55,865 bases of DNA from a virus: positions 1-55,865 of IMG/VR virus record IMGVR_UViG_3300045303_000324. One strand, 5' to 3'. Within the stretch, counting starts at the first letter, position 1; the number at the start of each line of letters is the position of its first letter. Positions 1,451-55,865 of the stretch are shown piece by piece. The notes under the pieces were generated by a model. The model saw only the letters and a list, made by a program, of their open reading frames with translations. It did not search any database and had not been told where the DNA came from. The translations under genes were made by a program, and so were the position numbers.

Positions 1451-1777
1451 ATGACCTCGAACGACTACAAAACAGAGCGCCAAAAGCGCGGGACACAAAA
1501 CGAAGTCGCGGCCCTACTCGGTGTAAAACAGGAAACGATCTCCCGCCGCGAGACGGGCGGGGAAATAACCCGCGAAGCATGGCTTGCACTGCTCTCGCTG
1601 CCGAAGAAAAGGAAACGCCGTGAAACCGTTAATTGCAACGCTCATCAGGGTTACACCAAAGACTTTCATTACCTGCAATACCAAACAAGCGATGGGGTTT
1701 GGCACGACATACCCGATGCTTTTGAAGATAAAACGGCGTATAGCATAGATAGAACCTCGGAATACGACAACCCATGA
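1451..1777 (+). CDS. HTH DNA-binding protein (XRE/Cro-like)
   Basis: GTQNEVAALLGVKQETISRRETG is a helix-turn-helix. It is the first gene of the rightward block downstream of the promoter. Confidence 0.7.
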   Translation: MTSNDYKTERQKRGTQNEVAALLGVKQETISRRETGGEITREAWLALLSLPKKRKRRETVNCNAHQGYTKDFHYLQYQTSDGVWHDIPDAFEDKTAYSIDRTSEYDNP

Positions 1778-1959
1778 AACGCACCGGACATCGCCTGTGT
1801 TCACCGGGCAAGGTGAAAGCCTATTTCCAAGCCGATATTGACGCGGCAATGGACGTTGTGATCCGGCTATCTGACAACGACCGATACGACGGCAAGAAAT
1901 TTATTCGTGAAGTAATCCGCAAACTTAAACCGTGGGGAACTGATGATCACTCTTTCTGA
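1774..1959 (+). CDS. hypothetical protein
   Basis: 61-aa ORF whose start overlaps the previous stop (ATGA). Confidence 0.45.
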   Translation: MKRTGHRLCSPGKVKAYFQADIDAAMDVVIRLSDNDRYDGKKFIREVIRKLKPWGTDDHSF

Positions 1960-2140
1960 CACTGACCCGATGCCATATGGCAAACACAAAGGGATTCCCA
2001 TGCAGGACGTGCCCGCAAATTATCTGCATTATCTGTGGCATAACGGGCTGCAACACGATCAAACCTCGAATGTGGCCCAATATATCAGGACAAATTTGCA
2101 CGCTCTAAAAGTTGAAAACCCCGATTTACTTTGGTCTTGA
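1943..2140 (+). CDS. DUF3820-like protein
   Basis: MPYGKHKGIPMQDVPANYLHYLW matches the DUF3820 signature as I recall it. Confidence 0.6.
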   Translation: MITLSDTDPMPYGKHKGIPMQDVPANYLHYLWHNGLQHDQTSNVAQYIRTNLHALKVENPDLLWS

Positions 2141-2337
2141 TCCCATGACTTACCACATACCAAACGCGAGACAAGGACTGGCTCGGTTTAGCAGTCCAAT
2201 GGAGGATACGCTTAGTCCGCAGTCGTTGTGCGTGATCCTCGAATTGATAGACGGAGCGGGCACGATTGCGGCGTGCCTGTCTCCGGGGGACTAAATATGA
2301 ACAAACAAACCAACTCCTTTTACTGACCCCAGACACC

Positions 2338-2562
2338 ATGAAAACCCCCCAATGGTTCAAAAAACTCGACGCCTGGACGGATCGGCAGCCTGTTCACTCG
2401 CTGATTCTGATTGGCGTGCTGTGTCTCACCGGCCTCGTGCTGGCGTGCTGGCTGGACTCAATCAGCGCGCGTCAACAAGGTCCGATATTCTGCACTGGCT
2501 TCTTCGTCGGCCTGTTCGTCGGCGCCGCAGCTCACGTCGCGGACTTGAAGAGGAAATCGTAA
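2338..2562 (+). CDS. small membrane protein
   Basis: ATG at 2338. Two hydrophobic helices (LILIGVLCLTGLVLACWL and FCTGFFVGLFVGAAA). Confidence 0.5.
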   Translation: MKTPQWFKKLDAWTDRQPVHSLILIGVLCLTGLVLACWLDSISARQQGPIFCTGFFVGLFVGAAAHVADLKRKS

Positions 2563-5025: not shown

Positions 5026-5553
5026 TTAGAGTTGGACCACCCAACATTGTCCAATAAGGGTGAATTTGCCAGCAAGCAGCTCTTCCACGGCCTGTTTGAC
5101 GCCGTGATGCTCCGCTCCGAAATCATGCCCAGCGGCAACGCCGCCAGCGCGAACCTTGGGCAACCAAGCGTTGATTCCAGCCTTCACCGCCTCGTAAGTG
5201 TGATCGTCGTCCAGGAAAACCGCCGCCAGATCGTTTCTGACGAGCTTTGACGCGGTGAGGCTGGTTGTCCTAAGGGGGATTACGTTTGAGCATTTGCACT
5301 GCAACATATTGCTTACGAAGCAACCGTACAAATCTTCGCGCGCGTCAACCCGATCAGCAATCGGAGCAAAGTATGGAAAATTATCCACGGCTATGATCGT
5401 CACGTCCGGTAGAACCTTGCTCGACAGATAGGCCGTTGACTTGCCCAAATAGCACCCGACCTCGACCACCACGTCGCCGGGACCAACCTTCGAGGCAATC
5501 AAGTCGTAGGTTTGTTGAAAATCAAACCATCCTTCTATTGATTCCCAAGTCAT
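5026..5553 (-). CDS. class I SAM-dependent methyltransferase (Methyltransf_24-like)
   Basis: VVEVGCYLGKST is SAM motif I. FLDDDHTYEAV...GGVAAGHDF is also present. The stop abuts the start of the next gene. Confidence 0.8.
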   Translation of the reverse strand: MTWESIEGWFDFQQTYDLIASKVGPGDVVVEVGCYLGKSTAYLSSKVLPDVTIIAVDNFPYFAPIADRVDAREDLYGCFVSNMLQCKCSNVIPLRTTSLTASKLVRNDLAAVFLDDDHTYEAVKAGINAWLPKVRAGGVAAGHDFGAEHHGVKQAVEELLAGKFTLIGQCWVVQL

Positions 5554-5635
5554 AAGAAGGACGGACGCGCGGTCTCGGCGAGCCTGCGAATCTTGTCACA
5601 GACACAGGCGTTATCGCTACGCGCGCCGTCCAAAT

Positions 5636-7039
5636 TTATACGAGGTTGTCGATAACTGCGTCCGCCCATAGGTTGTTCCTGTCAAACCACCTGTTCGCTT
5701 CGCGTCGGTTATGGGCATTGGCTTCACGCGCGGCATTTCCAGCCCAAGCCGGCTGGTGTGGCCGGTGCCAGATCGCCGACGGTAACGCCGGTGCACCGAC
5801 GCGCCGCATGAAGGCCAGCATGACCAGATCCCATTGCTCCGCGCCCAGAACCATGTCTGGATACTCGTTTCTCCACTGTTTCCACAGTTTCACGCCGATT
5901 GCGAACAAGTCCACACCGGGGTAAGGCTCCCCGTCCAGCGCATTCTCGTCCAAAGTATCGCTCCGATGCGCATAAGCGGCAGCAAGGGGCCACCTAGCGA
6001 CATCCAGCAGGGTTCCTGTGAGTCCTGGGGCAAATCCCACGTCGTCGTTGGTAATGACGAGCAAATCGGTGTCAGCGGCTTTGTCCGCGGCATTGTTAAG
6101 GATGTCTTTGATCAGGGGCAGCTCGCGGGCGTCGAAATGACGGCACCCACCGATGAATGGCGAATTGTTCCACACGGAACCGTATTCCCTGAGCCACGTC
6201 CGGGAGGCGAGATAATGCCTATCGTGCTGGTACTGGCTGCGTTTGAAATCCGACCAGCAATGCCACAGTTTGGGCTCTGGCCTCGGCTGGATTGCTTGCT
6301 CGACGGCCGCTAGCAGTTCCGCCGCGCGCGCCGGATACTCGCCATAACGGCAACGAAACGCTTGGTTTGGCCTCGTCGCCGTTCCGTGCCAAGAAGTAGG
6401 CCCGTCGGCGATCAGGGCAATCACCGGCAGTCGTGGTGTGGCCCAGGACAGGTGCAGGAAGGCACTGTCGATGGTCACCAAGCAGACGGCGCGGTCGAAT
6501 AACCCGAGCACGTCGTAGATTCGCTCGGCAATTGGGTCTATCACCTTGACTCGATCCCCGAAGGCTGACTTGAGCGATTCCAGCAACGCAGCTCGGTGAG
6601 CAAAAGGGCTGCTGGTCCCGTCGATGGCAAGGAGTATGGTGTTTGAATCAACTCCCAATCGTTCGACCAGCCTGGCTTCGCGCTCGGGGCTTCGTCGGTC
6701 AAAGCACAACACACCGGGCCAGCCTCGCCGTCCAATCTGCGCGAAGGCACTGCGCACGAAGGAATCACCGAGCGCGACTGTCGGCCAGTTCGCGGACCAG
6801 GCTTGCACAATGCGAAGCTCGTCGTATTCACGGGAGAATTCCTGGACGCATGCCTGAAGGTCCCAGTACTGGCCTTTGAAGATCACCGGGCGAACGTAAC
6901 TCACGCCTTCCAGCAGCGGTGCAAACTCTTCGCTCACGATCCAGTCTTGCGGACCTCGGATTCTAAACTCCTCCCATGCGAGCGGAAGGGCGTTGATTAT
7001 GTCGCCGTTTCTGCCCAAGCAACAGTACGCCACGCTCAT
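5636..7039 (-). CDS. two-domain glycosyltransferase (GT9-like N-half, GT-A-like C-half)
   Basis: N-half: GDIINALPL and IDSAFLHLSWATPRLPVIAL are heptosyltransferase-like. C-half: LLVITNDDVGF, GVDLFAI and WD. Confidence 0.65.
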   Translation of the reverse strand: MSVAYCCLGRNGDIINALPLAWEEFRIRGPQDWIVSEEFAPLLEGVSYVRPVIFKGQYWDLQACVQEFSREYDELRIVQAWSANWPTVALGDSFVRSAFAQIGRRGWPGVLCFDRRSPEREARLVERLGVDSNTILLAIDGTSSPFAHRAALLESLKSAFGDRVKVIDPIAERIYDVLGLFDRAVCLVTIDSAFLHLSWATPRLPVIALIADGPTSWHGTATRPNQAFRCRYGEYPARAAELLAAVEQAIQPRPEPKLWHCWSDFKRSQYQHDRHYLASRTWLREYGSVWNNSPFIGGCRHFDARELPLIKDILNNAADKAADTDLLVITNDDVGFAPGLTGTLLDVARWPLAAAYAHRSDTLDENALDGEPYPGVDLFAIGVKLWKQWRNEYPDMVLGAEQWDLVMLAFMRRVGAPALPSAIWHRPHQPAWAGNAAREANAHNRREANRWFDRNNLWADAVIDNLV

Positions 7040-12335: not shown

Positions 12336-15300
12336 TCAGGGCGTTTGCTTCTCGATTGCGTTTCTCATCGCCGTGCCAAGGTGACGGAGTGAACGGCTCT
12401 TGTTATCCCGATCCACGGCGTCCGTGGCGTCCATGACCAGTTTGCGCGCGTCCCTCAGAGTTTGGAAATCTTTCGTCCCAAGTTTGCCGTTCTGTTTCGC
12501 CCAGTCTGTGACCCATTGCACGTCTCTGGAGGCGGCTCCAGAAGACTCGGCGATATATCCCGTGGTCTTCAACGCGGTATCGACCAAGCTGCGGTGCGGT
12601 GTGGAGATCATGGCCGCCGTTTGTCCGGCGCCTCCCAAGGAACCAAGCAGATAGTCCAGGTTCCGCGGATCAATCTCCAGTCCGGCAACTTTCAAAGCCG
12701 AGGCGATTCCCTTGGACACCGCGCTCGCGTGAGCTGTTCCCTTGCGCAACTCGACTTTCAAATCCTTCTCCCACGCCGGCACAATGTCGCGGCCTCGAAA
12801 CGTGTCCCGGTTGAATTGCAATTCGAGAAAGGTCTTCAGCGGTCCGGTGCCCTCGACCGGCGTGTTGATCGGCAGAACCGCATTGGCCGCGCTGCCTGCC
12901 CAGCCTTCCATTGCCCGGCGATCCCCGAGAATACGGTCAATGGCGCGCTCCACGCCTCCCGCCATGACGCCCAGCTCGTGCGGACGCGGGATGCGCAACC
13001 AGTAGGGTCCCACCTTGAAGTTCCAAAAGAAATCACGCTGATACGCCGGCAACTGCTGGTACTCGTCCCAGGTATCCTTATTCTGGCGCTGATAAATCGC
13101 GTTGAGAATGGTCGGCACCAGCACGAACATTCCCCAACGCATTGCGAAGCCAGCCGGATTTTCACCGATGGAAAAAGCGGACCGCGCCAAACCACGAACG
13201 CGGGCATTTGAAAATGGAACCAGCCGGTTGATCACGCGCATCACCGTTCCAGCCTTGGCAAAATCCATGAGCCCACGCGCTTCTCCGGCCGCGTAGAGTG
13301 CCGCGTTGTAATCGTCGTACCCGAATTCTTTTTTGCCCATCTCGAAGGCGCGCCTGAATTCCGCAATGCGCCCGATCTTCTCGGACTTTTCGGAAAGGTC
13401 TTCCCACGCGTGTTTGAGCTTCAACGGAGAAAGCAGAATGTTGGTCGGGTCCTTGCGCAGTTCCGCGGCGGCTTTCTTGAGTTCCCTATTCCAGACGTGC
13501 CGGTCCACGATGTAATTGCCGAACTGTCCGCCGCCGAACACCTCGTAACGCGACAGCTCTTCCGGGGTGTACCCGCGCAGGATGTCCCAAGGCTTTGAAC
13601 CGTTCCGGCTGACGACGCTCCGCTCAAACGTGTCGCGCATCGGATTTCTCAGCAGGAATTGAGGACCGTGCGTGATCATGTAGCGCGCGAACTGTGATGG
13701 CAGGGAAAGCAGGTCGATGAATGCGTGCGTGCCCAATTCCCCCAGTCCCTTCAAAGAATCGTGAATGTCGGGGTCAAACTTCCAATACTCGGGCTTGCCG
13801 TTTTTCCAGACGGTGATCGTGTTCCTATCCGCGCTGGACGCCTTGCTTCCGAACTGCTCGAAGTCCTTGAGATTGGCCCCGTGCAATTCCCGCACATTCC
13901 GCAGACTGTCAACGAAAGTGTTGAGAGTGACGTTGCGGAACGCTTCCTTTTGAATCGAGTCCGTCTGCTCCAAGAGATTCGAGTAAACGTTGTCGAGTTC
14001 CAGAGTGCTGCCTTTGAACCTTCGGATGACATCTCGCGTCGTCCCGATCTTGCCACCCCGCTGAGCCCGGTTGCCTTCCTCAAATTCCATCGAGAGCCGG
14101 TGCATGTCCACGTACTGCTCGTTGTTGTTGCGGATTTCTCTTGCCGCGTCCTTGCTCAACCTGCCTGAATCAACCAGCATATTTAGATTCTGGTCCGCCC
14201 AGAGCCGGTATCGACGCGCGGCCTCTTTCAACCGGGTTTCACGAACGGGATCGGCGGCGACTCGACGCAACAGTTCTTCCGCCGCGGATTTGTCGGTGAG
14301 AATGCCGGCGCCAATTCCCGAAATGTTCGATTCCCGGCCAAGCTGTTTTCCTTTTTCGACCGTTCGTTGCGCGACCATGTAAGCCGAGGCGTCACGCATG
14401 TCCTGGTTGAATTTGTCTTTGGAAGTCTTGTCGAAAGCGTCCAACAGCCAGTTCATTGTCATCGGCTGCTTGGTCACGGGATCAATCAACCGCTGAACCT
14501 CCAACTGGCCTCTGGCGTTGACCGCTTGTGCGGGTCTCAACGGGGTCAGCCCATGCTCAAACTCGTCGGACATGCGGGCGTCATGGGTGGAAAGCAGTCT
14601 CGCCTGCAACTCGAAGTTGTCCTTTGGAAGCAGTTGTCCGCCACGCAAGGCATTCGCTTCCTTGAATGCTTTGACCGCGTAATGGTAGGGATCATCGAAC
14701 CACATTCTGAGACGGTCGATCGGATTGATTTCAAACCCAAACCCGCGTCCCCGCATTCCTTCCCAGAGCCGTTCCCGAAGCGACGGTGGTTCCATGCGTA
14801 TGTTCAAGCCAGCCCGGACCAGCGGGTCTTCACCAGCCCAGATGCGAACGTCGTTGCTGAAATCACGAATTGCTTTGAGCCCTTCCGGAGTCACGGTCTT
14901 CTCGAAGTAAGCCGTGAAATTGGGGGCTTCAGCCTTGGCCATTTTCGGGTTCACCACGTAAGCCCGGATGTATTCGGCCACGCCCTCCGCGCGCCGGTAA
15001 CGCAGGGTGCTCCTGGGCGTGACGCTGCCGTGAATCCAAAACTTGGCCAGCTCGGTGTCGTAGGGGGAACGCGTCTTGGCTTTGGCCCAAGGCGCGCCGA
15101 TTCCGTACCTGTCATCCATCCAATGCCCGGCCAGCTCATGCGCCGCGGTATCCAGATCACCGGCGAATTTCTCGGCCGTAAGCGTTGAGCCGGGACTGTA
15201 GGTGCCAAGCGTGTTCGCCTTCAGGCGACGCACCCTGATTGCCTTGCCGATGGCTTCAGAAAAATCCTCGATGATTTTGAAGGGTGACTTTGCACCGCCG

Positions 15301-45407: not shown

Positions 45408-46718
45408 TTACGGAACGGTCGGACACAACGAGTTTCCGCTGTTGTACGACTGGATCACCGATGCTTGTTCCGCACTGCACAACGGGTCGTCTATCAGGCA
45501 TGGGGGCTCATGTAGGTGGAGAATCGCTCTCACCAATTCAGGGCGCTCGTAACGAATTGCGTTCACAAAGTCTGCCCAGAAAGCCCCCTGATTATGCCGT
45601 TTGTTGTCGACAGTGCAGGCTTGTCCTGTGGCGGGGTCGGTCCACATGATGACCTCGCTGTTGTTGCCGCCCTGGAAGTACCATTTGCCGGCGAGATTTC
45701 GGACGAGGAAGGGCATCTCGCTGTTGATGGATTCGAGCGCCAGAGTGAGGACACGAGCGGCTTCGGGGTGCCAGATGAAACTGATCTGGTAACGGGCGCG
45801 TTTGTAACCGGGAGCGAGCTCGGGTTTGATGCCAATGCTGGCGGGAATGTTGTCCCAGGGAAAGATTCGCTTCAGGAACCCGGCAGAGACGCGTTCGTAG
45901 CGAAGGGGGGTAGCGTCCCAGGCGAAACCCCAGTTGCCGACGCCACCGGACAGGCCGAACTTCCACATGTCCGAACCTTTCTCGATGTCGGAATAGCGGT
46001 AGTTATCGTTCAGATTGTCCTTGCGCAGCTTTTTGGTCGTGGTGGGGTCGGTGATGACCTTCATAATGCCGTTGGGCACATATTTGCTCTTGAAATAGCC
46101 CGTGAGCTGAAGGTCTTCCCAGAAGTTGTCCAGGTAAGGGATCGTGAGCTGCGACGTCGGAAGATTGGCCGCCGAAAGGTGCAATTCGGTGCAGTCCGGC
46201 CCGAGCAGATCCGTGGTGATCGGCACGCTCAAGTCAGGGTTGGAGGCGTTGGCGATGTAAAGGCGTTGCGCACCCTTGAAAGCCTGTAAGCGCAGGTAAT
46301 TGGACTGAATGATGCGCGTCGCGTCCTTGAGACCTCCGATGATGGTCGAGAACTGTTCCTTCGCCGCGGCCTTGCTGTTGATCTGGTCGAAGCAAATAAC
46401 GTTTGTTCGGAAGGATTCGCCTTCCAGGCTGTAATCGGTGCGCGTGCTGCCCCAGCCGATGAGTTTTTCGGGCAGGGAACACGTCTCGCAGGTATTGGCG
46501 TCCCTGGTAATCGGAGTTCGACAACCTGAGAGGTTGGGAAAGGCGACGTGCATCCGGTGGTAGGCGTGCGTGGCCCCGGTGAAGGCGCCCCAGGTTCCGG
46601 TCATAAAATGGCCGATCCAGGCGTCGTCGGTGGGGAACCAGTCCCTTAGAATGTCGAGGTCGAAGTGAGGGGCGCGATCAAAGAGGTAGTCTTTGTAGAG
46701 TGAACAGTCGTTTGGCAT
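45408..46718 (-). CDS. putative major capsid protein
   Basis: 436 aa. It is the first gene of a long leftward late operon and follows a ~370-nt leader. Helix-then-beta pattern. Assigned from context and size only. Confidence 0.5.
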   Translation of the reverse strand: MPNDCSLYKDYLFDRAPHFDLDILRDWFPTDDAWIGHFMTGTWGAFTGATHAYHRMHVAFPNLSGCRTPITRDANTCETCSLPEKLIGWGSTRTDYSLEGESFRTNVICFDQINSKAAAKEQFSTIIGGLKDATRIIQSNYLRLQAFKGAQRLYIANASNPDLSVPITTDLLGPDCTELHLSAANLPTSQLTIPYLDNFWEDLQLTGYFKSKYVPNGIMKVITDPTTTKKLRKDNLNDNYRYSDIEKGSDMWKFGLSGGVGNWGFAWDATPLRYERVSAGFLKRIFPWDNIPASIGIKPELAPGYKRARYQISFIWHPEAARVLTLALESINSEMPFLVRNLAGKWYFQGGNNSEVIMWTDPATGQACTVDNKRHNQGAFWADFVNAIRYERPELVRAILHLHEPPCLIDDPLCSAEQASVIQSYNSGNSLCPTVP

Positions 46719-47090
46719 AAGCCAGTAATGTTGAGCAACAGTTTAACCGTCATGGGATTGGTGGGTTCCCTTACACCGTTGCCTCACTGGCCAGGCTCAG
46801 AAGGACTGTCCGTATCGCTGGCGGCGTCTTGCTGAAGGACGAGTTGGTCTTGCGACCCGAGCTATCGTGGAAGGAATCACGGAAGCGGAGAAATGTCAAA
46901 CTTTTATTTTTGAGATTGACTGTGGTTTAGGTACGGTTTGCACCTTGGAAAAGGTAAACCGGGGATCAAGCGGTTTAGTTCTCATTACGCGTTCTGAGTA
47001 AAACACAATTACCCTTCGATTTTTTTTAATTTTCACTTATGACGCGCCATCACCCGCGCAAATAACCTGGAATGAAAAATAAATTTTGGT

Positions 47091-47167
47091 GCGCCCGTAG
47101 CTCAATTGAATAGAGCCGTCGGCTGCTAACTGACTGGATGTGGGTTTGAATCCCACCGGGCGCACCA
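47091..47167 (+). tRNA. tRNA with anticodon GCU (nominally Ser), class I architecture, CCA encoded
   Basis: Full cloverleaf. Acceptor stem GCGCCCG/CGGGCGC, D stem GCTC/GAGC, anticodon stem GTCGG/CTGAC, anticodon loop CTGCTAA, 5-nt variable loop, T stem GTGGG/CCCAC, then A73 and CCA. Confidence 0.85.
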
Positions 47168-47237
47168 AATCTATAACTCAACTTCTAGCACTCAAATTTT
47201 TCCTACTCAAGGATAAAGAAGTGTCAACAAAAAGATT

Positions 47238-47414
47238 TCAGGCGAGCGCGAGACCGGGAGTGACGTGAGTTCTTTTCTCGATGAGCTTCACGTATTCCGG
47301 ATTGAGTTCGATCAAGAGTGCTTTGCGTCCGAGTTCCAGAGCGACCATGCCTGAGGTTCCACTTCCACCAAATGGGTCCAGCACCACGTCACCGGGCTTT
47401 GCTCCGGCGATTCG
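47238..47414 (-). pseudogene. C-terminal fragment of a beta-class DNA methyltransferase
   Basis: The frame reads ..AGAKPGDVVLDPFGGSGTSGMVALELGRKALLIELNPEYVKLIEKR..* (SAM motif I). A TAA closes the frame immediately upstream. Confidence 0.7.
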
Positions 47415-47614
47415 TTAGCAACAACTTGCTTTATGAGGAATTCGGAGTTCCCCAACTTTGACACTCCTGCTTCATAAGCCGCCGAAATAGAATCGAAAGT
47501 TCCAAGGAAGTCGCTACCCTTGAAGACGGCGAACTTGCCCAAACAAATCTTGAGCAATTCGTCTTTTCTGGCTTCATAAGCCGCAAGTTCTTCTTTGAAT
47601 TTAAGGTCTGCCAT
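47312..47614 (-). CDS. small ORF that runs out of frame into the methylase fragment
   Basis: The first ~65 aa (MADLKFKEEL..GKFAVFKGSDFLGTFDS..EFLIKQV) look like a small antitoxin-like DUF. The last ~30 aa are an out-of-frame read of the methylase remnant. Confidence 0.4.
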   Translation of the reverse strand: MADLKFKEELAAYEARKDELLKICLGKFAVFKGSDFLGTFDSISAAYEAGVSKLGNSEFLIKQVVANESPEQSPVTWCWTHLVEVEPQAWSLWNSDAKHS

Positions 47615-47674
47615 ACCCGCATCAAGATGAACGTGGAATATAGCACAATCAAGTAAGATTGTAAGCCCATCTGA

Positions 47675-47818
47675 TTAGTTCGTTAACAGTTCTTCAATCG
47701 TCCAAGTGTGATCGGTAAGCCCGACTGCCATTGCTGGCGTCAATCCGTGCGCCGCGCTCTTGCGACAGAAATTTGTGTGCGCGACCAACAGGGCAACTGA
47801 ATGTTTGAGGTTTGCCAC
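47675..47818 (-). mobile_element. C-terminal remnant of a DDE transposase
   Basis: The frame reads ANLKHSVALLVAHTNFCRKSAAHGLTPAMAVGLTDHTWTIEELLTN*. This is a characteristic transposase tail with no upstream part. Confidence 0.45.
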
Positions 47819-47840
47819 TTGCGGGGCTTTTGTTTTACTG

Positions 47841-47891
47841 TTGACTTATGTTTAACAAAACTCTAGCTTTAGGTCAACACTTTTGTTAAAC
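47841..47891 (+). promoter_or_regulatory. Promoter with an 11-bp inverted-repeat operator
   Basis: TTGACT (47841-46), 17-nt spacer, TAGCTT (47864-69). GTTTAACAAAA (47850-60) and TTTTGTTAAAC (47881-91) are perfect reverse complements. Confidence 0.45.
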
Positions 47892-47897
47892 CAATGT

Positions 47898-48083
47898 ATG
47901 CAGTCCAAGAAACCTAAAATGGGGAGACCGAGGCTTTCCGAAAAATCACCCAAAGACGTTCTTATCGGTGCCAGATTTGGCAAAGAAGAAGCCGAATTGA
48001 TTGAGGGAGCGGTGAAACGAACCACCCGAAACAAATCAGCATGGGTCAGGAGTGCCCTGCTGTCCGCAGCCAAAAATTCTTAG
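47898..48083 (+). CDS. ribbon-helix-helix regulator
   Basis: ATG at 47898. KDVLIGARFGKEEAELIEGAVKRT..NKSAWVRSALLSAA is a typical RHH layout. Confidence 0.6.
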   Translation: MQSKKPKMGRPRLSEKSPKDVLIGARFGKEEAELIEGAVKRTTRNKSAWVRSALLSAAKNS

Positions 48084-48280
48084 TACGCCGGTTTCAAATG
48101 CTTTTTTGGGTGACGAATCGGGCGCTGCGGCTCAATACGAGCGGATTCGCAGGACGGATTATCGGCTTGTTTTCGTTCGGGAAAACGATCAATATAAAGT
48201 TCGTCGAATAGAGTCCTGAAAAGGCTCTTTTCCTTGGCATAACTGCGCCTGACGAGTTCATTTTTTGGAAACATTATCAT
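48080..48280 (-). CDS. hypothetical protein
   Basis: 66-aa ORF whose start overlaps the upstream stop (ATGA). AT-rich. Confidence 0.4.
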   Translation of the reverse strand: MIMFPKNELVRRSYAKEKSLFRTLFDELYIDRFPERKQADNPSCESARIEPQRPIRHPKKHLKPAY

Positions 48281-48570
48281 TTGCGTTTGCCTTTCTTCTT
48301 TTTCTTGAGTTTTGACAATTGCTGTTTTCTTGATTGCAGCTTTTCACAAGCTTTGGAAATAGCGTCCCTTCGAGTTCGATCCAAAAATTTGTCCACAAAC
48401 GCAGTCATGCCAGCACCCATGACGACAACGGGAAATTCCAATCCTTCGTGTTTAATCTCGTGAATCTTGGCGACTGATTTTGAAACCAGAACTCCACGTC
48501 CAAAGGTAGCCTTGCTATCGCTGGAAACAACAAGTCCGTCAGAACATTTGATTGCTATGCCAACAGTCAT
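48277..48570 (-). CDS. proteasome-beta/HslV-like Ntn-hydrolase, N-terminal half only, with a poly-Lys tail
   Basis: MTVGIAIKCSDGLVVSSDSKATFGRGVLVSKSVAKIHEI..VVVMGAGMTAFVDKF aligns by eye with the HslV/proteasome N-terminus (T1, D17, K33/34). The ORF ends at 97 aa in KKKKKGKRK. Confidence 0.45.
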   Translation of the reverse strand: MTVGIAIKCSDGLVVSSDSKATFGRGVLVSKSVAKIHEIKHEGLEFPVVVMGAGMTAFVDKFLDRTRRDAISKACEKLQSRKQQLSKLKKKKKGKRK

Positions 48571-48683
48571 TTAAGATTGATACCCGGTAACGCAATTTGT
48601 AGTGATCCTTGGGCGTTCGTGCAACAACAAGATTGTCGAGTTCAACCGAGTACTGTTTCTGGCATTTTATAGGTAAATCAACT

Positions 48684-48836
48684 TTAGAGTACGCCACGAC
48701 CGATTTGGTCGGCGTGCCCATAGTCGCGCAGTCCCCAGTACGGCGGCGATGTAACGCAGCATTGCACGCTTTCGTCAGGAAGTTTTTTCAATTCCTTCAA
48801 CGCATCGCCACAGATGATGGTGAGTCGGTCCTTCAC
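48684..48836 (-). pseudogene. N-terminal fragment of a beta-class DNA methyltransferase
   Basis: The GTG overlaps the rusA stop (GTGA). It reads MKDRLTIICGDALKELKKLPDESVQCCVTSPPYWGLRDYGHADQIG (motif IV SPPY), then RGVL*. Confidence 0.7.
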
Positions 48837-55738: not shown

Positions 55739-55865
55739 ACCGTCGGGCAAAATAGAATGCTTACCCTCCGTTGAAATAGAATGTAAACAGGGCTGAAGCA
55801 AGCGCGCGCTGCCGGGTAGGCGTGGCGATTGACCCCAGGTTGGTGTCATTGTGGCGGCCGGAAGT
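55739..55865. repeat. Terminal direct repeat, copy 2 (identical to 1..127)
   Basis: See copy 1. Confidence 0.95.

Follow-up and report, generated by a model that had tools for sequence, protein, structure and literature searches.

An arginine-type tRNA gene with a serine (GCU) anticodon in a phage genome, inserted among remnants of mobile DNA

What does a transfer RNA (tRNA) gene do in a phage when its body specifies one amino acid and its anticodon reads the codons of another? The question is raised by a viral DNA record of 55,865 bp (IMG/VR IMGVR_UViG_3300045303_000324, positions 1 to 55,865, hereafter the window), in which ARAGORN reported a sole tRNA gene, at 47091-47167 on the plus strand, with the anticodon gct. 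A previous description made from the letters alone (the sequence-only reading) had proposed that this gene combines an arginine-type body with an anticodon for the Ser codons AGC and AGU (together AGY), and that the phage might use it deliberately. The first part of that interpretation stood and the second found no support. We found an intact tRNA gene with an Arg-family body and a GCU anticodon, genuine and well beyond chance. The explanation that we prefer, with about even confidence, is that of a recently imported tRNA-Arg-family gene associated with mobile DNA, which had a non-Arg anticodon on arrival and is now a passenger in the phage. Coordinates of the features are collected in Table 1.

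Every element of the cloverleaf previously listed, with stems of 7, 4, 5 and 5 bp, A73 and an encoded CCA, was found in the gene. The 7-bp acceptor stem (GCGCCCG/CGGGCGC) is followed by a D stem (GCTC/GAGC) that encloses the D loop AATTGAATA, numbered A14 A15 U16 U17 G18 A19 A20 U20a A21. After C26 come an anticodon stem with one G-U pair (GTCGG/CTGAC), a variable loop of 5 nt (TGGAT) and a T stem (GTGGG/CCCAC) with the T loop TTTGAAT, in which U56 lies at 47147. The 3' end consists of A73, at 47164, and a CCA encoded in the gene. All core nucleotides are present (U8, A14, G18, A21, G53:C61, U54, U55, A58 and R15:Y48). The match to Rfam RF00005 scored 62.5 bits (E = 3e-11) at a gathering score of 29, so that the cloverleaf, the conserved core and the score all place the gene in the Rfam tRNA family. 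The cloverleaf is also the minimum-free-energy fold (-31.1 kcal/mol, z = -2.9 relative to shuffles). The anticodon GCU, in the loop C-U-G-C-U-A-A, was confirmed both in the sequence and by ARAGORN, the tRNA caller that had been suggested as a check. The A19/U56 pair noted in place of G19/C56 is likewise real, and positions 19 and 56 covary in tRNAs of the same D-loop type: among the tRNAs of the loci fetched for this analysis that have an N19-A20-U20a-A21 D loop, we counted 104 G:C, 28 A:U, 3 C:G and 2 U:A. A19:U56 is therefore a recurrent and common variant of arginine tRNAs, and no special feature of this one.

Which amino acid does such a body specify? In bacteria, arginine identity is set by A20, the main determinant and unique to the Arg family, together with C35, U36 or G36, and A73 or G73, while seryl-tRNA synthetase (SerRS) relies on the long variable arm as its primary determinant, with G73 as discriminator and C2:G71 as an antideterminant (PMC9976931). 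The window tRNA carries the full set for arginyl-tRNA synthetase (ArgRS), namely A20 (47110), C35 (47126), U36 (47127) and A73 (47164). As a tRNA-Ser it fails on each count, having a variable loop of 5 nt and no class-II arm, A73, and C2:G71; SerRS recognition, already judged doubtful in the sequence-only reading, is thus improbable for two further reasons. With four Arg elements present, no long arm, A73 and C2:G71, ArgRS is the sole synthetase whose known rules are satisfied; the body is of the arginine type, and a bacterial tRNA-Ser is excluded. Its anticodon is at odds with this, being neither NCG nor YCU, as in tRNA-Arg, but GCU, which reads AGC and AGU. Identity and anticodon can part ways here because position 34 is not read by ArgRS, nor the anticodon by SerRS. 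Since ArgRS is blind to position 34, the RNA, if made, would be charged with arginine; by these identity rules, once processed, it would pair with AGC and AGU and cause Ser-to-Arg errors.

Comparison with other tRNAs pointed to the same body type. A scan of IMG/VR with the exact 18-nt D arm, leaving the anticodon unconstrained, returned 42 tRNAs (29 distinct), and all 29 distinct sequences had Arg anticodons (15 UCU, 9 ACG, 3 CCU, 1 GCG and 1 UCG). Among the non-target tRNAs of the fetched loci, too, the D-arm pattern occurred with Arg anticodons only, except in one labelled Tyr(AUA). At 76.6% identity, the nearest tRNAs in sequenced phages were the tRNA-Arg(UCU) of two Stenotrophomonas phages, RAS14 and CM1, and the majority of other full-length phage tRNA matches were annotated as Arg. 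Like these tRNA-Arg(UCU/CCU), for example that of RAS14, the window tRNA has a class-I body, a GCGCCCG-type acceptor, a G18-N19-A20-U20a-A21 D loop, C32-U33 and C35-U36-A37-A38 in the anticodon loop, a 5-nt variable loop and A73, and its A19:U56 pair is common in phage tRNA-Arg; unlike them, it has G34, which reads AGY rather than AGR (AGA and AGG), an acceptor lengthened by 6 bp, and a gene that is not conserved in the relatives of the phage. The closest match found agreed at 62 of 74 positions, and no close relative with UCU turned up.

Covariance models of our own, with the anticodon masked and built from tRNAs not chosen for likeness to the window tRNA, gave 81.9 bits for Arg (rank 8 of 313 matches) and 77.1 for Lys, compared with 62.5 for the generic Rfam model. 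These models are only moderately specific, the 45 best matches of the Arg model comprising 31 tRNAs with Arg anticodons and 7 class-I tRNAs with GCU or ACU. The Arg-over-Lys margin of +4.8 bits fits Arg and is not decisive, since margins in this range occur in some Asn, Met and Ile tRNAs as well. Per-isotype DNA hidden Markov models (Lys 43.5, Arg 38.7) were discarded for poor leave-one-out performance (Met 6/20, Ile 2/14, Arg-NCU 11/21), and a nearest-neighbour identity vote on the isotype gave no signal. We found no identical copy of the window tRNA in IMG/VR, nor any tRNA there with both its D arm and its T arm; blastn against E. coli genomes gave no match, and the phage collection yielded generic tRNA-level matches only.

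Is the gene likely to be matured like an ordinary tRNA? The leader TTTGGT pairs with A73-CCA-AA and lengthens the acceptor stem to a helix of 13 bp, which the sequence-only reading had not mentioned. This helix dominates the precursor fold (plus strand, -41.2 kcal/mol, z = -5.25). On the minus strand it is longer by way of a G-U pair (-43.3 kcal/mol, z = -6.6), and a U-rich tract, UUUAUUUUU, comes after it. None of the 444 ordinary tRNAs of the fetched loci has more than 2 extra acceptor pairs, while the window tRNA has 6 and 8 of 97 class-I GCU/ACU tRNAs have 3-4. In a bacterial tRNA precursor, the 3' RCCA must be unpaired for RNase P. Pairing of leader and CCA thus makes routine maturation less likely, or else points to a function for the structure as such.

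How did the gene come to lie where it does? The window is one metagenome contig (Logan SRR35384919_33039) with an exact terminal direct repeat of 127 bp (1-127 and 55739-55865), which fits a complete phage genome of ~55.7 kb, closed into a circle or terminally redundant. Its proteins are mostly unannotated, those recognized including a DnaB-type helicase, RecT, a PD-(D/E)XK nuclease, RusA, a cytosine methylase fragment and tail-spike-like proteins. A neighbouring gene (45408-46718, minus strand) encodes a capsid-like protein of 436 aa, of which soil-type metagenomes contain more than 100 homologues. IMG/VR gave no match when scanned with this single protein; relatives were gathered by an alignment-based IMG/VR scan with it, and the loci fetched were labelled with L-numbers. 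More than 60 related loci were fetched, in which the identity of the 436-aa protein ranges from 95% to ~26% (including 95, 85, 79 and 77%), and no tRNA was found in those scanned. The closest long relative is L007 (an IMG/VR contig of 55,751 bp). By blastn, window 45432-46899 matches L007 11287-9827 and window 47216-47410 matches L007 9838-9644; because the two window segments are adjacent in L007, the 316 bp between them are an insertion, and the tRNA lies within it. The insertion is bracketed by an imperfect direct repeat that is present in a single copy in L007 and whose right copy is unique in the window; it is ambiguous and may be a target duplication or a microhomology. The flanks of the insertion showed no similarity to any fetched locus, to the phage collection or to the rest of the window, and Rfam found nothing but the tRNA across the region. 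Both flanking genes lie on the minus strand, which makes the tRNA antisense to local transcription, and no sigma-70-like promoter was found for it on the plus strand, where the sigma-70 consensus may not be that of the host.

Beyond the insertion lie further signs of disturbance. To its right lies a 3' relic of an N6/N4 DNA methylase gene, whose homologue in L007 is intact (355 aa; L007 8749-9816, PF01555, 178 bits). Homology to L007 ends at 47410, and in place of the remainder of the methylase gene there are 1.3 kb of unrelated DNA containing small open reading frames (ORFs). At the same site, the relative with 95% identity has a different, Dam-type methylase. Within the replaced DNA, 0.5 kb from the tRNA and convergent with it, is a relic of an IS1-family transposase, covering profile positions 228-273 of 295; it was the sole match of the profile in a six-frame translation of the window, and tblastn hinted at it as well. 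Pfam and NCBIfam gave no match for the 56-aa fragment alone. This is not an insertion sequence (IS) of the IS1 family in any complete form, as only a relic of 46 residues is left and no terminal repeats were found. Taken together, the truncated methylase, the 1.3-kb replacement and the transposase relic place the tRNA in a scrambled, hypervariable slot with footprints of mobile DNA. As to the slot itself, the segment upstream of the capsid-like gene (window 47216-48700) is hypervariable among close relatives, with the intact N6/N4 methylase in L007 and a Dam-type (MethyltransfD12) methylase in L003 (54-887). A role as attP, the attachment site of a temperate phage, found no support, as no integrase was seen among the scanned ORFs, which yielded RecT, a PD-(D/E)XK nuclease, DnaB and RusA and left many unannotated.

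Does AGY mean anything but Ser in this phage? Counted over 49 ORFs encoding 100 aa or more, AGC and AGU account for 38% of Ser codons, or 24 per 1000 codons, and AGA and AGG for 21% of Arg codons. When the 436-aa capsid-like protein was aligned with 39 homologues, its 11 AGY codons fell opposite Ser, Thr, Asn, Asp, Gly or Pro, and never Arg. On these data we reject genome-wide recoding of AGY, and, in agreement with what the sequence-only reading had said of its Ser positions, AGY is ordinary Ser in this genome, with no code change. Without recoding, Arg inserted at AGY would be an error, harming the phage's own proteins. No synthetase-like match was found among the ~30 window ORFs scanned, some small ORFs lying outside the scan. 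Deliberate recoding, mistranslation or a decoy thus found no support in a gene that is missing from the relatives, sits in a 316-bp insertion, runs antisense with no promoter found and lies beside an IS1 relic.

We then asked whether tRNAs of this kind occur elsewhere. Sequences were scanned for a loop with U33-G34-C35-U36-A37 downstream of the Arg-type D arm (TAGCTCA...ATAGAGC), and, as a control, for the same loop with A34; being conditioned on G34 or A34, these scans speak to recurrence and not to frequency relative to U34 or C34. The G34 scan of IMG/VR gave 44 matches, 32 of them distinct, including 11 good cloverleaves of which 9 were perfect. The A34 control gave 27 matches, 18 distinct, with 5 good cloverleaves. 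In bacterial species genomes (GTDB, one per species) we found at least 116 distinct sequences and at least 62 good cloverleaves, spread over many phyla. In an alignment of 19 Arg-type tRNAs including that of the window, pairing holds in 97% of stem cells and changes on both sides were seen in 15 of the 21 pairs, so the cloverleaf has been kept by compensatory change; no shuffle and no slid register came near the observed value, in a test that is somewhat biased as its members were originally detected as cloverleaves. The A34 scan also returned a further group whose acceptor and T arms are perfect and whose anticodon stem is non-complementary; its members share the conserved motif CTACTAAGT.

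Some members of the set deserve separate mention. Several Arg-type GCU tRNAs (L240, L260, L313, L349, L366, L372 and L399) have C55 (T loop TCCGA...) in place of the near-universal U55, and others (L176, L304 and L412) have C19:G56 or U19:A56 instead of G19:C56. Look-alikes with perfect acceptor, D and T arms were seen in viral contigs (L278, L281-L283, L290, L292, L295, L296, L299 and L300) and in Bradyrhizobium japonicum (L427-L431); their anticodon stem is unpaired, and the motif CCTACTAAGT is conserved among them, as in GGTCC-CTACTAA-GTTCC. A viral contig close in size to the window (57.6 kb; L284, IMGVR_UViG_3300005336_000007) carries on its minus strand, at 14098-14172, a perfect Arg-type tRNA with the anticodon ACU (7/5/5 stems, 80.6 bits on the Arg model), and its RusA-like and cytosine-methylase-like genes are 40-45% identical to those of the window.

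The surroundings of these tRNAs revealed a common neighbour. At ~20 loci, an Arg-type tRNA with G34 or A34 lies 80-260 nt upstream, on the same strand, of a gene for a protein of ~300 aa that scores above threshold for Pfam DDE_Tnp_IS1 and is annotated by NCBI as 'IS1 family transposase' (Table 1). By comparison, an IS1-family transposase was absent from all 44 IMG/VR loci picked by the D arm alone (322 tRNAs). Approached from the other side, ten transposase groups were looked up blind to tRNAs; an aberrant Arg-type tRNA lies 100-120 nt upstream in 2 of the 10, and none in the other 8. One of the two is B. japonicum (L427-L431), where the upstream tRNA has the anticodon ACU and a non-complementary anticodon stem and borders a variable region; the second case is Humitalea (L440), where the Arg-type tRNA has an 8-nt loop. 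The idea that the tRNA is integral to the IS1-like element as a general rule was rejected on these eight loci, and the tRNA is accordingly not an obligatory part of the IS family. Overall, tRNA and transposase are associated far more often than expected by chance, and an abnormal anticodon arm is a consistent trait of the tRNAs concerned. We found no exact inverted repeats of at least 10 nt bracketing the tRNA-transposase units. In these loci a palindromic TGCTTGAC...GTCAAGCA motif precedes the start codon of the transposase.

Table 1. Positions of the features of the window and of tRNA-transposase loci elsewhere
Feature	Position	Strand	Evidence or details
Class-I tRNA gene, arginine-type body, encoded CCA	47091..47167	+	ARAGORN; Rfam 62.5 bits; minimum-free-energy cloverleaf; Arg covariance model R1, 81.9 bits
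Anticodon GCU (Ser AGC/AGU), loop C32-U33-G34-C35-U36-A37-A38	47125..47127	+	Sequence; ARAGORN, gene position 35
D loop AATTGAATA, 9 nt	47104..47112	+	A20 at 47110; A19 at 47109, pairs with U56 at 47147
Perfect inverted repeat of 13 bp, acceptor stem plus 6 bp	47085-47097 with 47157-47169		Repeat search, folding
Insertion, ~316 bp missing from L007	46900..47215		tRNA with 190 bp upstream and 48 bp downstream
Imperfect direct repeat, left copy GAGAAATGTCAAAC	46888..46901		Right copy AAGAAGTGTCAAC, 47216-47228; alignment by eye
3' relic of N6/N4 DNA methylase, last ~60-65 codons, DPFGGSGT motif	47232..47410	-	Homology to L007, three-frame translation
IS1-family DDE transposase relic, C-terminal ~46 residues	47678..47845	-	Profile of 238 homologues, E = 5e-8, 29 bits
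Bacterial tRNA-transposase loci (16)			L318, L335, L344, L347, L349, L366, L367, L377, L384-L387, L399, L408, L412, L414
Viral tRNA-transposase loci			L264 (GCU), L290 (ACU), L210 (partial)
L408	tRNA 5319-5394; transposase 5508-6401		
L427	tRNA 1321-1397; transposase 1501-2394		

How are these observations best explained? In the account that we favor, the tRNA would be foreign to the phage lineage and would have arrived recently, with mobile DNA, in the 'methylase slot' between the methylase and capsid-like genes. It would be a member of the recurrent set of Arg-type tRNAs with abnormal anticodon loops in bacterial and phage mobile DNA, marked by G34 or A34 with C35-U36, sometimes by broken anticodon stems or 8-nt loops, and in many cases by a position ~100 nt upstream of an IS1-family transposase. 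Given this recurrent set, a GCU inherited with the imported gene is likelier than a fresh mutation of tRNA-Arg(UCU). Most likely the tRNA contributes little or nothing to phage translation, because it is antisense, has a paired CCA end and no promoter that we could find, and sits in a genome that uses AGY heavily. Several points weigh against this account. The relic and the tRNA are convergent, with 195 bp of methylase relic between them, while the usual order is tRNA and then transposase, so a single joint insertion is not demonstrated; neither IS terminal inverted repeats nor a clean target duplication was found in the window, and the flanks of the 316-bp insertion match nothing. Eight of ten transposase-anchored loci do without a tRNA, which is hence not integral to the IS family, and the census of G34 and A34 tRNAs was drawn from searches requiring those anticodons. 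Finally, an RNA that is produced and put to use would be in keeping with the perfect cloverleaf, the tertiary covariation and the encoded CCA, and the sigma-70 scan may not be applicable to the host. A bolder version, in which Arg-type GCU/ACU tRNAs form an undescribed family carried or targeted by IS1-like elements in many phyla and phages, and are made, charged by ArgRS and act as selfish mistranslators or in the service of the element, with the window tRNA as a member, is in our judgment rather improbable.

The simplest rival is that a captured tRNA-Arg(UCU or CCU) underwent a single wobble mutation after capture and is now neutral, weakly expressed or a decaying pseudogene. GCU is indeed one substitution away from either, the nearest phage tRNAs are Arg(UCU), and a tRNA-Arg(UCU) would be useful to a phage with AGR at 21% of its Arg codons, such genes being common phage helpers for rare AGA and AGG. 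The gene is also private to this phage, leaving little time for further decay, and conflicts of anticodon and isotype often mark decaying tRNA-derived elements (PMC8450103). However, the best match reaches only 62 of 74 positions with no close UCU relative; Arg-type G34/A34 tRNAs recur at many unrelated loci with intact, covarying cloverleaves, where one-off decay predicts otherwise, and the IS relic and the extended acceptor helix tie the gene to that recurrent set. We regard a mutation after capture as doubtful. Unlikely, in turn, is a functional Arg-accepting decoder of AGC and AGU, serving programmed or selfish mistranslation through damage to host proteins, protein diversity or relief of stalling where a defence nuclease destroys the host tRNA-Ser(GCU). 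Such a molecule would account for the complete ArgRS set and the canonical anticodon loop with U33 and A37 (PMC9976931), for L-shape tertiary pairs kept by covariation and an encoded CCA, and for the recurrence of the design in phages and bacteria, and it has a precedent in tRNAProX, the dedicated mistranslation tRNAs of bacteria (PMC10404621, PMC11415595). Yet AGY occurs 24 times per 1000 codons and at conserved Ser/Thr positions of the capsid-like protein, so the phage would damage itself; the gene is missing from all scanned relatives, is antisense to its neighbours and lacks a promoter that we could find; pairing of leader and CCA is atypical of a processed tRNA; decoding is incompatible with the unpaired anticodon stems, or the 8-nt loops, of several tRNAs in the recurrent set; and no dedicated synthetase or editing factor was seen among the ~30 window ORFs scanned.

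Another rival is a tRNA-shaped element of RNA or DNA that does not decode. It might signal processing or insulate, act like a terminator on the minus-strand transcript between the methylase and capsid-like genes, offer mobile elements a site for recombination or targeting, or serve as a decoy for defence proteins that bind tRNAs. In the recurrent set, conservation extends over the acceptor, T and D arms, with anticodon arms that are often aberrant; the position upstream of IS1-family transposase genes is fixed, extended acceptor helices are enriched in the set, and in the window the longer minus-strand helix, with its G-U pair (-43.3 kcal/mol, z = -6.6), runs into UUUAUUUUU. On the other hand, the corresponding junction of L007 lacks the element, no match to a known family or mechanism was found, with tRNA the only family given by Rfam, the strand preference hangs on one G-U pair, and conservation of A20, C35 and U36 is partly imposed by the search patterns; we consider this quite unlikely. 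An artefact of assembly or sequencing, whether through chimeric joining to bacterial DNA or through an error in base 34, has in its favor that the window is a single metagenome-assembled contig. It appears very improbable, as foreign and L007-homologous segments interleave (at 46899, then 47216-47410, then 48700) in a manner unlike a simple chimera, the contig closes on itself through its 127-bp terminal repeat, and independent contigs elsewhere carry the same kind of tRNA.

Is there a known system to which this gene belongs? Among tRNAs reported to escape defence nucleases, those of T5-type phages are said to keep a cognate anticodon and their identity and to change other positions of the anticodon loop. 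In the window tRNA, the anticodon itself is not cognate to the body, and the loop is otherwise canonical. 'Hybrid' tRNAs flagged IPD by tRNAscan-SE 2.0 have been viewed as possible 'genetic code-breakers' or as decaying tRNA-derived elements (PMC8450103); they share with the window tRNA the conflict between anticodon and body isotype, but IPD is a general flag and denotes no described family. Natural tRNAs with a mismatch between the anticodon and the charged amino acid are known from Streptomyces and relatives as tRNAProX, which works with ProRSx (PMC10404621, PMC11415595). There, a dedicated synthetase, A33, A15-A48, G21 and conservation in the lineage go together, whereas the window tRNA has no synthetase among the ~30 scanned ORFs, canonical core nucleotides and a gene not conserved in relatives; it thus shows neither the lineage conservation nor the co-encoded synthetase of the tRNAProX type. 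In anticodon shift or remolding, a point change in the anticodon reassigns the codon of a tRNA gene (PMC3923123, PMC4783518). Such shifts succeed where the synthetase reads the changed base and identity moves with the anticodon, whereas in the window tRNA the two do not move together. A problem of the same kind is met in metazoan mitochondria, where, after reassignment of AGR, Ser tRNA(UCU/GCU) must escape an ArgRS that tolerates any base 34 (PMC4615739). These mitochondrial Ser tRNAs lack the Arg identity elements and fidelity is kept, whereas the window tRNA has all of them.

In a literature search covering part of the journals, we found no published account of a tRNA with an Arg body and GCU in a phage, nor of aberrant-loop Arg-type tRNAs beside IS1-family transposases. 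Since ArgRS ignores the wobble base and SerRS the anticodon, an Arg-type GCU tRNA is among the few designs expected to break the code outright by a single base, with Arg at AGC and AGU. Were it active in the phage, this would provide a natural example of mistranslation carried by a virus; if inert, mobile DNA would be scattering 'code-breaking' tRNA look-alikes that annotation pipelines label as tRNA-Ser. The wider pattern, of abnormal-loop Arg-type tRNAs beside IS1-family transposases in bacteria and phages, is testable.

A few further arrangements were observed among the fetched loci. A tRNA-like sequence with intact D, anticodon (GCU) and T arms and no acceptor pairing (TTCCTTG ... CTTGATTATT) recurs in viral contigs, identical in L166, L197, L252, L261, L262, L266, L267 and L273 and as a variant in L126, L150 and L254. 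Half-paired forms ending in CTTGAA(T/A) were seen in bacterial L393, L398 and L410 and in viral L276. These unpaired and half-paired forms look like attachment-site or junction copies. Three Arg-type tRNA-like copies with the loop CTGCTAA (L337 4048-4130 and 4324-4400, and L368 at ~7134, all from one contig of a Bacteroidia metagenome-assembled genome, JAUIBA010000005.1) carry an insertion ahead of the 3' strand of the anticodon stem, a perfect palindrome of 20 nt, CCTGCCTGCCGGCAGGCAGG. Finally, a conserved alphaproteobacterial module (L306 300-1020 and, on the minus strand, L357 3680-4400, L376 5800-6520, L308 3180-3900 and L364 640-1350; also L384) consists, in order, of a class-II Leu-like tRNA, an ORF of ~133 aa that is coiled-coil or winged-helix-turn-helix-like and without Pfam match, a terminator hairpin and an Arg-type tRNA(GCU). 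The anticodon of the Leu-like tRNA is aberrant, being UUA ('ochre') in four loci, AGA in one and ACC in one. Behind the Arg-type tRNA there is a partial repeat of the 3' half of the Leu-like tRNA, which suggests insertion into a tRNA-Leu gene, and in L306 an IS1595 transposase lies nearby.

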